From NCBI GenBank assembly GCA_021814805.1, contig JAKAHT010000001.1:29027-67297 (forward strand): a stretch of DNA of 38,271 bases, given 5' to 3'. The notes below the pieces were generated by a model that saw only the letters and a list, made by a program, of their open reading frames with translations, did no database searches and was not told where the DNA came from. Positions 2,362-33,587 of the stretch are shown here, one piece after another. How positions within the stretch are numbered: position 1 is the stretch's first letter; every line of letters begins with the position of its first letter. The translations under genes and the position numbers were made by a program. The stretch is from a bacterium. Its GTDB lineage: Bacteria > Patescibacteriota > Minisyncoccia > UBA6257 > GWB1-50-10.

Positions 2362-2805
2362 TTAGCTGATTAAAAAAATCCTTTTGTTCTCGTTCTTGTG
2401 TTTTATGTATATGGATAGAGTTTTGTTTTTAAGGTGTTTTTTTATCAAATCAGCCCACTCCACCGCTATGATATTGTTTTGTCCGGAAAGGGCGGCTTCT
2501 ATTCCGGTCACCTCCAAGTCTCTTTTTGTTTTTATGCGATAAGCGTCTACGTGGTAAAAGTTTTTATATTTTTTGTTTTTGAGGATGCTATATCTTCTGA
2601 CCATTAAAAAAGTCGGGCTGGTTATTTTGTTTTTTATTCCCAAGCCCCTACCCAGTCCTTTTATAAATGTCGTTTTACCGGACCCCAAATCGCCGTTTAG
2701 GGCTATTAAAAAATTACCAGATCCGTTTTTTAATATTTCTTCGCCGAGCACTCTGCCTAGTTTAACTGTCTCTAAGTTTGACTTAGTTTCTATTCTCAAT
2801 TTCAT
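2362..2805 (-). CDS. tsaE: tRNA t6A37 biosynthesis ATPase TsaE (YjeE family)
   Basis: 147 aa. Has the P-loop GDLGSGKTTF, then SPTF and HVDAYR, which are hallmarks of TsaE. Its stop lies 1 nt from the polA start, and its ATG overlaps the ruvB stop (TAATG). Confidence 0.85.
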   Translation of the reverse strand: MKLRIETKSNLETVKLGRVLGEEILKNGSGNFLIALNGDLGSGKTTFIKGLGRGLGIKNKITSPTFLMVRRYSILKNKKYKNFYHVDAYRIKTKRDLEVTGIEAALSGQNNIIAVEWADLIKKHLKNKTLSIYIKHKNENKRIFLIS

Positions 2806-3806
2806 TAGATCAGTTTACGCGTTTTATCGAGCTTCAGGTGTTTATAAGCAAGATCGGTTGCCGTCCGGCCGGACGGAGTTCTATTTAATAGTCCGATTTT
2901 CATAAGAAACGGTTCATAAACTTCTTCAATTGTATCCATTTCCTCGTTCAGGGCAGCCGCCAGAGTTTTCAAGCCGACCGGTCCGCCACCGAATTTTGTC
3001 ATTATTGTTTTTAAGAGTTCGCGGTCGGCCTCCTCGAGTCCTAAAGAGTCCACCTCGAGCATTTCCAGTGTTTTTTCAACCACTTCGCCGCTTATTTCTT
3101 TTTTCTTGTTAACTTGGGCATAATCTCTGGCTCTCTTTAACAATCTATTGGCGACCCTCGGTGTAAATCTAGAAGCTTCGGCAAGTTTTTTAATTGCTTC
3201 TTCTGCTATTTCGACGTTCAGTATCTTAGCCGATCGCTTTATTATTTTTTCCACGTCCTCGTTTTGATAATAATCCAACCTAAACGTCGCTCCGAATCTG
3301 GAACGGAGAGGAGAGGAAAGTAAGTTGACTTTAGTTGTGGCCCCTATGACGGTAAAAGGCGGCAGATCCAAGGTGAAGGTTTTAGCCGCCGGACCCTTGC
3401 CTATTATAAGGTGCAGTTTTCTGGACTCCATGGCCGGATAAAATATTTCTTCCACCAGTTTGTTTATCCTGTGTATTTCATCTATAAAAAGTATCTCGTT
3501 GGGTTCGAGGTTAGATAATATGGCGGCTATGTCGCCCGGCTTTTCCAGAGCCGGACCCGAAGTGGATCTGACCCCCACGCCCATTTCTTTGCCTATTATA
3601 TAAGCTAAGGTGGTTTTTCCGAGACCGGCCTGACCGTAAAATAAAAGGTGGTCCGAACTTTCGCCTCTTTCTTTAGCCGCTCCGATTATGAGCTTGAGAT
3701 GATTTTTTATCTTGTCTTGGCCAACATATTCGCCGAAAGTTTTGGGTCTTAAGAGCTGCTCTATGCTTTCCGATTCCTCGTTTGTTGTTTTTTCTTTTTT
3801 ATCCAT
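2805..3806 (-). CDS. ruvB: Holliday junction branch-migration helicase RuvB
   Basis: 333 aa. LRPKTFGEYVGQD...LLFYGQAGLGKTTLA (Walker A), ILFIDEIHR (Walker B) and a C-terminal winged-helix region typical of RuvB. Confidence 0.97.
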   Translation of the reverse strand: MDKKEKTTNEESESIEQLLRPKTFGEYVGQDKIKNHLKLIIGAAKERGESSDHLLFYGQAGLGKTTLAYIIGKEMGVGVRSTSGPALEKPGDIAAILSNLEPNEILFIDEIHRINKLVEEIFYPAMESRKLHLIIGKGPAAKTFTLDLPPFTVIGATTKVNLLSSPLRSRFGATFRLDYYQNEDVEKIIKRSAKILNVEIAEEAIKKLAEASRFTPRVANRLLKRARDYAQVNKKKEISGEVVEKTLEMLEVDSLGLEEADRELLKTIMTKFGGGPVGLKTLAAALNEEMDTIEEVYEPFLMKIGLLNRTPSGRTATDLAYKHLKLDKTRKLI

Positions 3807-3878
3807 AACCCTGTTTATTGGTTATTATACACCAAAAAAGCTTTATTTTTCCTACATTTTGGAGGGAGAGTTATACCC

Positions 3879-3907
3879 TTGACATTTATATATGTTTATG
3901 CTAATAT
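3879..3907 (+). promoter_or_regulatory. sigma70-type promoter TTGACA-17 nt-TAATAT with no protein gene downstream
   Basis: TTGACA at 3879-3884, an exact 17-nt spacer, TAATAT at 3902-3907. The tRNA-Gly promoter at 33559-33587 has the same architecture (TTGATA-17-TAATAT). Confidence 0.5.
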
Positions 3908-3913
3908 GGTCCT

Positions 3914-4063
3914 TGTCTTTAATTGGAGGCCTGTGGGCAGGAGATATTCTCCAGAATTTGGACTGCTTGGTTCCGGCTGGGCTAATCCTCGAGAAAATCT
4001 CACATAAAGCCTCTCCTTACGGCATTATGCCCACAGACCTCCCACTAAAGGCTTTTTTATTTT
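3914..4063 (+). ncRNA. unclassified structured small RNA (~150 nt, rod-like); family not recognised and strand tentative
   Basis: It begins about 7 nt after the -10 box. The 5' end GUCUUUA-AUU-GGAGGCCUGUGGGCA (3915-3939) pairs with UGCCCACAGACCUCC-CAC-UAAAGGC (4028-4052): 7 bp, a 3x3 loop, then 14/15 bp. An inner helix pairs GAGAUAUUCUC (3941-3951) with GAGAAAAUCUC (3991-4001), 10/11 bp. A U-tract UUUUUUAUUUU (4053-4063) follows directly. Confidence 0.5.
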
Positions 4064-5738
4064 AAGAAATGTCCCAAATTAAGGGGCCGGTTAATCTTTC
4101 TATCTCATCGAGGCTTGTTATGCCTTGCAAAACTTTAAGTAGCCCATCCTCTTGCATCGTCACCATACCTTGGGCCCTGGCTAGATCCTTAAGTTGTATT
4201 TCGGTTGGGTTCCCGTAAATGGCCGATTCTATTTTTTCGTCCACGACAAAAAGTTCAAAGACCGAGGTTCTACCTTTATATCCCAAACCGGCGCACTTGT
4301 CGCATCCCACAGCGCTCCAAATTTTATAGTTTTTATACAGTGATGTATCAACCCTTTTAGGAAGCCTTTTAAGTAGTTTTTCTATGTTGTTTTTGGTTGT
4401 TTCGTCGAGTTCTTTTTCTTTTTTGCACGAAGAACAAAGTTTTCTTACGAGTCTTTGGGCTATAATGAGGCTTAAAGAAGGTCCCAGTATATTAGATGGA
4501 ACATCGAGGTCCATAAGTCTCGGTATGGCTCCCACGGCGTCGTTGGTGTGGAGAGTGGAGAAAACCAGGTGGCCTGTCAGGGCGGCGTTTAGAGCTATTT
4601 CGGCCGTCTCTTTATCTCTTATTTCGCCGACTAGTATTATGTTCGGATCCTGTCTCAAGATAGATCGAAGTCCGGAAGCAAAGGTGTAGCCTGCGTCCTG
4701 GTCTATTTGAGTTTGAGAAATCCCAGCCAGATGGTATTCTATCGGATCTTCGACTGTTATTATCTTTATTTCCGGTTTAAACACCTTCCTTAAAAAGGCA
4801 TAAAGTGTGGTGGTTTTACCCGATCCGGTGGGTCCGGTATTCAATATGAGCCCGTTAGGTTTTTTTATTTCGCTTTCCACTATCTCTAAATCGTCCGGTC
4901 GCCACCCGAGTTCTTCCAGATTTACTTTCAAAGATAACGGATCCAAGAGTCTTAAGACCACGGTTTCTCCGTAGTCGGAGGGTATTATCGATGTCCTTAT
5001 TTCTATGTCTCGGTCGGACAGAGCTATGGTGAAGCGGCCGTCCTGCGACTCGTTGGTTATGTTTATTTTTAAATTAGACAGGAGTTTTATCCTGGTAACG
5101 ATAGATTTATAAGTTATTTGGTTGAATTTATCGTAAGCATTATGCAGTAATCCGTCGATTCTAAGTCTCAGTATCCCATTCTCTTCGGCCGGCTCCAAAT
5201 GAATATCCGAAGCTCCGAGGGCTATGGCACCCGAAAGTATTATTTCTAGGATTTGAGATAAATAAGGACTATCGAAATCGGTCAGTAGTTTATTCAGGTC
5301 TTCTAAGCTTTTTATTTTTTGCTGCAATTCTTTTAATTTGCTCTCGTCTATCTCAACTTTACCGCTGATTTCTTTGTCCGGGACTATATATTTGTAGTAG
5401 CTCCAAGCGTGATTCAGGCTCGACATTGAGACGGTATAAAGAGAAACATCCAGTTTTTCTTTTATCTTCTGTATAATTTTTTTTGTCTCTTCGAGTTCCG
5501 GATCGAAAACAGCCACTGAAGCCACTTTATTAACTATCCGAAAAGGCGCGAGAAGAGCTTTTTTTGAGTCCGATTCCGGAATGAGCTCCATAGCCTTTAT
5601 TTCGGTCGGGACCTTATTGGAGATCAGATTCAAATAAGGGAGTTTATTTTTATCAGCGCGTCTTTTGGCGTCATTTTCTTCGGCGTCTCTTTTTTGATTT
5701 TTCAGTTCTTCTTCTATGTCTTTTTTGGATTGAAACAT
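4062..5738 (-). CDS. pilB: GspE/PilB-family secretion ATPase (type IV pilus assembly / T2SS E protein)
   Basis: 558 aa. Walker A GPTGSGKTTT, Asp box/Walker B ILVGEIRD, His box TGHLVFSTLHTN, and a tetracysteine motif CSSC...CDKC. No other pilus genes occur in the window. Confidence 0.88.
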   Translation of the reverse strand: MFQSKKDIEEELKNQKRDAEENDAKRRADKNKLPYLNLISNKVPTEIKAMELIPESDSKKALLAPFRIVNKVASVAVFDPELEETKKIIQKIKEKLDVSLYTVSMSSLNHAWSYYKYIVPDKEISGKVEIDESKLKELQQKIKSLEDLNKLLTDFDSPYLSQILEIILSGAIALGASDIHLEPAEENGILRLRIDGLLHNAYDKFNQITYKSIVTRIKLLSNLKINITNESQDGRFTIALSDRDIEIRTSIIPSDYGETVVLRLLDPLSLKVNLEELGWRPDDLEIVESEIKKPNGLILNTGPTGSGKTTTLYAFLRKVFKPEIKIITVEDPIEYHLAGISQTQIDQDAGYTFASGLRSILRQDPNIILVGEIRDKETAEIALNAALTGHLVFSTLHTNDAVGAIPRLMDLDVPSNILGPSLSLIIAQRLVRKLCSSCKKEKELDETTKNNIEKLLKRLPKRVDTSLYKNYKIWSAVGCDKCAGLGYKGRTSVFELFVVDEKIESAIYGNPTEIQLKDLARAQGMVTMQEDGLLKVLQGITSLDEIERLTGPLIWDIS

Positions 5739-33558: not shown

Positions 33559-33587
33559 TTGATATATGGTACGTTTTAAGTTAATAT
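33559..33587 (+). promoter_or_regulatory. sigma70-type promoter for tRNA-Gly: TTGATA-17-TAATAT
   Basis: TTGATA at 33559-33564, a 17-nt spacer, TAATAT at 33582-33587. The tRNA begins at 33609. Confidence 0.55.

Follow-up and report, generated by a model that had tools for sequence, protein, structure and literature searches.

An uncatalogued structured RNA family encoded beside ruvB in Parcubacteria-type members of the Patescibacteria

The 6S RNA is distinguished by a large two-stranded central bubble between its closing and terminal helices, by binding of the sigma70 holoenzyme and by the templating of product RNAs. Among other structured bacterial RNAs, 5S rRNA is a 120-nt three-way junction with a conserved loop E/helix IV-V arm, and RNase P RNA is a molecule of ∼330-400 nt built around the P4 pseudoknot core. 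The signal recognition particle (SRP) is a special case in bacteria of the candidate phyla radiation (CPR); Nelson and Stegen detected neither ffh nor ffs in any Parcubacteria genome (PMC4508563), and SRP subunits are reported to be absent from many CPR bacteria (PMC8080830). Here we describe an RNA gene from a patescibacterium of the GTDB lineage Minisyncoccia; UBA6257; GWB1-50-10, located in a 38,271-nt stretch of contig JAKAHT010000001.1 (assembly GCA_021814805.1, positions 29,027 to 67,297), which we refer to as the window. The gene lies in the 255-nt gap between two minus-strand genes, ruvB and a pilB-like gene, and all of its signals are on the plus strand. Sequence comparisons place it in an uncatalogued family of structured RNAs that is near-universal in a Parcubacteria-type CPR family and extends more widely in the class.

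The RNA is present as a single copy in the source assembly (480.6 kb in 27 contigs, 93% complete). BLASTN found it in 22 of the 96 genomes of the GTDB family, with alignments that start exactly at the -35 box. A covariance model constructed from eight sequences of the genus and a hand-drawn structure recovered exactly one full-length copy in 80 of the 96 genomes, representing 37 of 43 genera, with lengths of 135-175 nt. A second model, built from 30 sequences, was applied to a phylum-wide sample of 401 genomes and matches at least two of three genomes of the same order, at least six of about 24 of the same class, and at least four weaker candidates in other classes, all of these being lower bounds as seven candidates were scored per genome. 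The weakest out-of-class matches (L094, L096, L097 and L099) are plausible rather than certain homologues. The gene order ruvB(-)/RNA(+)/pilB(-) is maintained across the class; in the candidate homologues of other classes pilB is gone, although adjacency to ruvB with divergent promoters persists. This constant adjacency may reflect function or merely conserved gene order. A repeat or mobile element such as a miniature inverted-repeat transposable element is ruled out by the single copy and the fixed synteny.

The helices are strongly supported by covariation. In an alignment of 46 distinct sequences, to which the sequence counts given below also refer, 94.6% of the 2275 pair cells are standard pairs, compared with 38-52% when partners are slid by one to three columns. 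Compensatory, two-sided changes occur at 44 of 51 pairs, and none of 500 shuffles reached the observed pair measures. A smaller, 30-sequence set also covaries. An independent MAFFT alignment folded with RNAalifold recovered helices P1 and P4 with 20 compensatory pairs, and for most relatives minimum free energy folding of the single sequence likewise yields the P1-P2-P3/P4 rod with its side hairpin.

The fold shown by the model consists of a 24-bp closing helix (P1), a three-way junction, a conserved arm (P2, an internal loop, P3 and P4) and a variable third arm; feature coordinates are listed in Table 1. The ends of the RNA pair at 24 of 25 positions. The initial annotation, a reading of the window's letters that preceded this work, had described this pairing as 7 bp, a 3x3 internal loop and 14/15 bp containing the C3930/A4037 mismatch, and had added an inner helix with 10 of 11 positions paired; both are found as it described them, and all of its coordinates are correct. 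Two-sided changes are seen at 23 of the 24 pairs of helix 1 and at all 11 pairs of P2, in which 94.7% of cells are paired. The P1c segment is altered in other families to CUGUAGGC, CUGCGGGU and similar sequences. Across homologues the asymmetric loop has the form C-AG-N4-5 on its 5' side and UC on its 3' side, and G3954 probably pairs with C3990, the corresponding column pair (52/112) being G-C in 41 of 46 sequences. Two GG/CC pairs of P3 never vary, and its third pair is A-U, G-U or C-G. The P4 hairpin contains tandem wobbles (U.G, U.G, G.U) that are near-invariant, with G.U in 43 of 46 sequences and U.G in 35 and 30.

The conserved columns are CUG...CAG in P1c, AG, GG, UUGG.U..G/GCUGG and UCCUC. 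The UCC-UC-G element is the string conserved most widely across the class, and the most persistent class-wide signature is AG-N3-6-GGR-[hairpin with UUGG/CUGG]-YUCCUCGR. The third arm is 23-60 nt long in other genera, with one or two hairpins. In most lineages, we note, this arm opens with a tract rich in pyrimidines (CU), and the loop UCUCCUUAC in the window resembles the anti-Shine-Dalgarno end of 16S rRNA. A full-length R1/R2 match, its own promoter, P1, P2, the AG loop, GGR/YCC, the G:U hairpin and UCCUCG are all present, and together they define a new family.

Table 1. Features of the RNA gene and its neighbours, in window coordinates.
Feature	Position	Strand	Remarks
RuvB gene	2805-3806	-	RuvB_N, lid and C domains (Pfam)
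-35 box TTGACA	3879-3884	+	17-nt spacing kept in nearly all homologues
Extended -10 element TGcTAATAT	3899-3907	+	TG 3899-3900; hexamer TAATAT 3902-3907; 17-nt spacer after -35
Structured RNA core, 138 nt	3915-4052	+	Full-length match, 147.6 bits with covariance model R1, 125.6 bits with covariance model R2
P1a 5' strand	3915-3929	+	Pairs with 4038-4052; sequence varies between genera, covaries
C3930 opposite A4037, conserved mismatch in P1	3930	+	C/A 34, C-G 5, U-A 3 among 46 distinct sequences
P1c 5' strand CUGUGGGCA	3931-3939	+	Pairs with UGCCCACAG at 4028-4036; nearly invariant in family
P2 5' strand GAGAUAUUCUC	3941-3951	+	Pairs with 3991-4001
Asymmetric internal loop, 5' side C-AG-AAUUU	3952-3959	+	AG conserved at least 95%
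P3 5' strand GGA	3960-3962	+	Pairs with UCC 3986-3988
P4 hairpin UGCUUGGU-UCCG-GCUGGGCU	3964-3983	+	UYCG loop at 3972-3975
Conserved 3' element UCC-UC-G	3986-3991	+	P3 3' strand, two loop bases, first base of P2 3' strand
P2 3' strand GAGAAAAUCUC	3991-4001	+	Partner of 3941-3951
Variable third arm of three-way junction	4002-4027	+	GCC (4009-4011)/GGC (4021-4023) hairpin, CU-rich loop UCUCCUUAC
P1 3' strand (UGCCCACAG, A4037, CCUCCCACUAAAGGC)	4028-4052	+	
U-tract UUUUUUAUUUU	4053-4063	+	Directly 3' of last P1 pair
T2SSE/PilB-like ATPase gene	4062-5738	-	Pfam

The near-consensus plus-strand promoter proposed earlier, TTGACA-17-TAATAT, is present, and the RNA core begins seven bases past its -10 box. 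The promoter in the window would by itself not be beyond chance (one site against 1.3 expected in shuffles), and its significance comes from its retention in relatives. Counting sites on the same strand that match at 9 or more of 12 positions and lie no more than 70 nt upstream, we found a promoter in 39 of 43 homologues, nearly always as TTGACA-17-TG-n-TAnnnT; the TG-n-TAnnnT form of the -10 element usually lies 6-9 nt 5' of the first paired base. Two apparent exceptions, L091 and L095, do carry the promoter, which overlaps the start of the model match. The initial annotation also attributed the same architecture to the tRNA-Gly(UCC) promoter at window positions 33559-33587. That promoter, with 9/12 matches overall, is similar in its 17-nt spacing and TAATAT box, although it has TTGATA rather than TTGACA and is without the TG extension.

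The U-tract directly follows P1, as had been noted, and because of this position P1 and the U-tract look like an intrinsic terminator, which overlaps the stop codon (4062-4064) of the convergent pilB-like gene. In relatives, either a T-run comes straight after P1, or the same strand carries, 20-40 nt further 3', a separate terminator with a G+C-rich hairpin. We therefore predict from these signals that the RNA starts at ∼3914-3915 and ends inside the U-tract, giving a total of ∼145 nt. It is probably transcribed strongly and constitutively, and is presumably abundant and stable, given the consensus extended -10 element, the U-tail, and the 24-bp helix in which its ends are locked. The minus strand has TGGTGTATAAT at 3824-3834, with a TATAAT (3829-3824) that is 17 nt ahead of the ruvB ATG at 3806, from which we infer that ruvB probably has a promoter of its own, back to back with that of the RNA, and a leader that is very short.

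Sequence labels offer a further view of the distribution. The two halves of P1c used as an exact pattern (18-nt anchors) gave 80 loci, mostly chance palindromes in unrelated phyla, and these loci served solely as negative controls and to supply organism labels. About 60 of them are in records without a CPR label and yielded one weak model match (36 bits, in a Prevotellaceae record); all of the strong model matches among the 80 are in CPR-type or unlabelled records of metagenome-assembled genomes (MAGs). Labels of the matching records are Harrisonbacteria, Wolfebacteria, Minisyncoccia/Minisyncoccales and Patescibacteria group. We note that the public labels of near relatives conflict, with automated third-party annotation (TPA) MAGs given as 'uncultured Candidatus Saccharibacteria' and others from the same loci as Harrisonbacteria, Wolfebacteria, Minisyncoccia/Minisyncoccales, Paceibacterota or Parcubacteria group.

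The RNA corresponds to no known family. A cmscan search of the window with all 4227 Rfam 15 families at gathering thresholds reports only tmRNA and three tRNAs, and at E≤10 on positions 3780-4120 there is nothing credible for the element. There is likewise no Rfam match at E≤5 or E≤1 in 29 homologous loci (17 from the family and 12 from other families or classes), nor for the element at further ruvB loci. The Rfam comparison suggested in the initial annotation thus gives no confident match to 6S, SRP or any other RNA, and its proposal of an independent, promoter-driven, structured plus-strand RNA of unassigned family with a U-tail is borne out by the conserved promoter and the covarying helices. 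Weak minus-strand matches to mir-763 and CbSR14 (E ∼1) are noise. We found no account of the RNA in the literature on noncoding RNAs (ncRNAs) of Saccharibacteria, Patescibacteria, CPR or Parcubacteria.

Two well-known RNAs and several motifs were considered and rejected. The 5S rRNA model (RF00001) has no match at E≤10, and the arm in the position equivalent to the conserved arm of 5S rRNA is here the variable one. The RNase P RNA model (RF00010) has no match at the element, which is only 138 nt, and the RNase P RNA of this genome lies at another locus (G000:C13:17605-17960, minus strand). That RNA was recovered at 87 bits by targeted search, under the Rfam cut-off of 100, and therefore the pipeline can detect diverged RNAs in these genomes. 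RNase P RNA was recovered in 87 of the 96 family genomes and only 30 exceed the cut-off, such that annotation at gathering thresholds misses it in most of them. A scan of the whole assembly at gathering thresholds reports only 16S rRNA, tRNAs, tmRNA and an L10 leader. The 16S rRNA gene is at C7:1616-3102 and neither 23S nor 5S rRNA is matched at these thresholds; both probably lie in the unassembled 7%. A hammerhead-like CUGAUGA in some relatives is inside the covarying P1a and coincidental, and a conformational switch (a GGCA-loop-UGCC hairpin versus P5 and P1c) was set aside, as many lineages lack the GGC element.

Could the element belong to the minus-strand genes instead, as the ruvB leader or as the 3' untranslated region or terminator of pilB? 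It sits constantly beside ruvB, even in other classes, and both strands, which the initial annotation had proposed to fold, are far more stable than shuffles; the minus strand of the window, at -59.7 kcal/mol (z -5.43), surpasses the plus strand, at -54.7 kcal/mol (z -3.97). The family settles the strand as plus by sequence comparison: G:U and U:G cells number 340 against 29 A:C cells (238 against 13 on the smaller set), so the helices hold only on the plus strand, where the models score 125-150 bits compared with 25-37 bits on the reverse strand, and the conserved promoters lie on the plus strand. The P4 wobble pairs would become A/C mismatches on the minus strand. The initial annotation cautioned that inner helices might favour the minus strand; this holds for the conserved C3930/A4037 mismatch, which is the sole such position, and is outweighed by the family-wide counts and promoters. 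The promoter, terminators and U-tail are all on the plus strand, no U-tract follows a hairpin on the minus strand, and with the minus-strand TATAAT between the element and the ruvB start the element is probably outside the ruvB transcript. We thus regard a cis-acting role for the minus-strand genes as highly improbable. A small protein is scarcely credible as the product. Open reading frames (ORFs) do exist, namely a GUG-initiated one inside the RNA and the 57-codon ORF at 3892-4065 already listed in the initial annotation, and in one frame the P4 region gives a similar peptide in some relatives. However, the ATG at 3892 is upstream of the -10 box, and no Pfam family matches the 57-codon ORF. 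Close relatives differ by single-nucleotide indels that change the frame, and substitutions compensate one another across the helices. The relatives, in which the initial annotation proposed to look for the helices, have them, together with substitutions and indels that lack 3-nt periodicity. Because lengths vary from 135 to 189 nt, covering all residue classes modulo 3, and codon periodicity is missing, the sequence evidence is that the RNA is non-coding.

Resemblances to 6S and SRP RNAs call for closer consideration. As 6S RNA, or a second 6S-like RNA, the element would act as a rod-shaped mimic of open promoter DNA by which sigma70-RNA polymerase is sequestered. Its size, paired ends, rod-like shape and strong promoter fit, and RF00013 finds nothing above its cut-off in the source genome or the 96 family genomes, so that the 6S slot seemed empty. 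The comparison with 6S RNA in the initial annotation stands as to design and fails as to membership. On positions 3780-4120 RF00013 has no match at E≤10 (its gathering score is 46.4 bits), and a central bubble is lacking, since only 1-5 nt separate P1 from P2 on the 5' side and P2 is a covarying 11-bp helix. Moreover, the same genome has a better 6S candidate outside the window, at G000:C10:13512-13666 (plus strand), directly after ndk in the gene order aspS-ndk-RNA, and genome G081 holds both RNAs at separate loci. For these reasons it is unlikely that the RNA is 6S. Features of the candidate after ndk are its own TGTGCTATAAT box (-10), a 5' bubble strand rich in A and U, the closing stem GUCCCGUUC/GAACGGGAU, and a GGGA...CCCACCUGG arrangement as is typical of 6S RNA. 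It is not reported by RF00013 in the source genome, and its G081 orthologue, a promoter-to-terminator RNA downstream of aspS, scores 27.3 bits, below the cut-off. The same 6S-like design follows ndk at many Patescibacteria loci (L141:1501-1646; L144, L146, L148, L158, L159, L164-L166, L168 and L170), and by its sequence features the RNA after ndk is likely the 6S RNA of the lineage.

A highly diverged or relic SRP (4.5S) RNA would likewise be hairpin-like with paired ends, and would account for a conserved apical module with an asymmetric loop, long on its 5' side and short on its 3' side. SRP RNA is otherwise undetected in the family (RF00169 matches none of the 96 genomes, including the source genome, and detects its controls in 13 of 14 reference genomes). 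The minus-strand string CAGCCGGAACCAAGCAG also resembles the SRP RNA domain IV consensus. That string (GGAA..AGCAG) is on the wrong strand, however; the plus-strand loop has the form UYCG instead of GNRA, the place of the symmetric loop is taken by a helix rich in G:U pairs, and RF00169 and RF01854 have no match at E≤10 on 3780-4120. The partner proteins Ffh and FtsY are absent as well: neither the Ffh M domain (PF02978) nor an SRP54-type GTPase domain (PF00448) above cut-off is found in any of the 96 genomes, and the source genome has no credible ORF with a DTAGR motif, which only L31 carries. The source lineage behaves in this respect like Parcubacteria. Without Ffh and FtsY and with the SRP-like string on the opposite strand, SRP RNA is a very unlikely identity for this sequence. 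A related but distinct idea is that the RNA is a subunit of a novel ribonucleoprotein (RNP) specific to SRP-less CPR bacteria, possibly a 4.5S descendant or functional replacement that works with another protein, the ribosome or an insertase in membrane-protein targeting. The apical module has an SRP-like layout, and the RNA-bearing genomes that we checked lack Ffh and FtsY; these are within the 96 family genomes, together with G254, a 100% complete genome of another class with a weak candidate homologue, in which the check was of the DTAGR motif only and found no such ORF. We consider this idea a long shot.

What the sequences show is a stand-alone RNA gene, present in one copy, under structural constraint and preceded by a near-consensus promoter. 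The function that we favour, with a probability of roughly 0.55, is that of a scaffold or ligand of a protein partner, i.e., an RNP component in the style, though not the family, of SRP RNA, 6S RNA or Y RNA. We favour it because conservation is concentrated in helices, one internal loop and one hairpin, and because a long helix holds both ends of the RNA. The protein would dock at the basal helix and at the apical module, and antisense pairing would be less likely than protein binding; the only long unpaired region is the third arm, which is the variable part. The main rival is a trans-acting base-pairing small RNA, in which the CU tract or loop of the third arm (UCUCCUUAC in the window, anti-Shine-Dalgarno-like) would pair with purine-rich ribosome-binding sites of mRNAs and the remainder would be a stabilising scaffold. 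The tract of the window occupies a 9-nt hairpin loop (4012-4020), and pyrimidines make up 68% of the first 16 nt of the third arm compared with 54% of the RNA as a whole. Of the 46 sequences, 34 have a CU-rich 4-mer in this arm, where shuffles give 21 on average and 33 at most, although the sequences are related and the shuffle test overstates significance. The third arm is nevertheless the least conserved part in sequence and length and is missing from one distant candidate homologue, the tract is mostly paired inside its own hairpin in the larger variants, the strongest conservation is elsewhere in the RNA, and we identified no target. Base pairing through this arm has in our estimate a small chance of being the function.

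Several observations weigh against the protein-binding reading or the structure on which it draws, the enrichment of the CU tract being one of them, as it fits a base-pairing role. We recognised no known protein-binding motif and identified no protein partner, and by inspection the sequence of the internal loop is unfit for a K-turn or loop-E pattern. The predicted transcript ends and abundance follow from promoter and terminator logic. The alignments used for the pair counts were fitted to the covariance model and hence lean towards structure, and the independent MAFFT and RNAalifold run did not recover P2. Lastly, P1c may be nearly invariant in the family in part because the sequences have diverged little.

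Genomes of CPR/Patescibacteria are reduced to the essentials, as in the 0.48-Mb assembly here. An additional, strongly promoted RNA that is present in one copy and whose structure is under strong selection in dozens of genera likely serves a core function, and offers a handle on new biology in mostly unculturable organisms. It also exposes an annotation gap, in that this RNA goes unannotated in Rfam-based pipelines, as do, in this lineage, the 6S candidate and many RNase P RNAs. The novelty lies in a new RNA family, and we do not claim a new mode of action.

Among described systems, 6S RNA (SsrS, RF00013) is like the element in being a stand-alone, strongly promoted, single-copy and housekeeping-like RNA of 140-190 nt, an interrupted rod with its ends in a long closing helix; it differs in the large central bubble, and the element has instead a three-way junction with a variable arm, no match to the 6S model, and a separate, better 6S candidate elsewhere in its genome. 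The bacterial small SRP RNA (RF00169) shares the paired ends and an apical functional module in which a short helix and then a tetraloop hairpin come after an asymmetric loop, and is unlike the element in the GNRA loop, the symmetric loop, the model and the Ffh/FtsY partners discussed above. Y RNAs and YrlA, the partners of Ro60/Rsr, have a similar long stem formed by the ends, with conserved sequence and a single mismatch or bulge, as well as variable distal parts and a 3' U-tail, although the element matches neither the Rfam Y RNA nor the YrlA models and has no tRNA-like module. There are also parallels to orphan structured ncRNA classes such as raiA, HEARO and OLE, which when first discovered were likewise defined by covariation and conservation, lineage-restricted and of unknown function. 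The element differs from these in sequence and structure, is smaller than OLE or HEARO, and is tied to the neighbourhood of ruvB.

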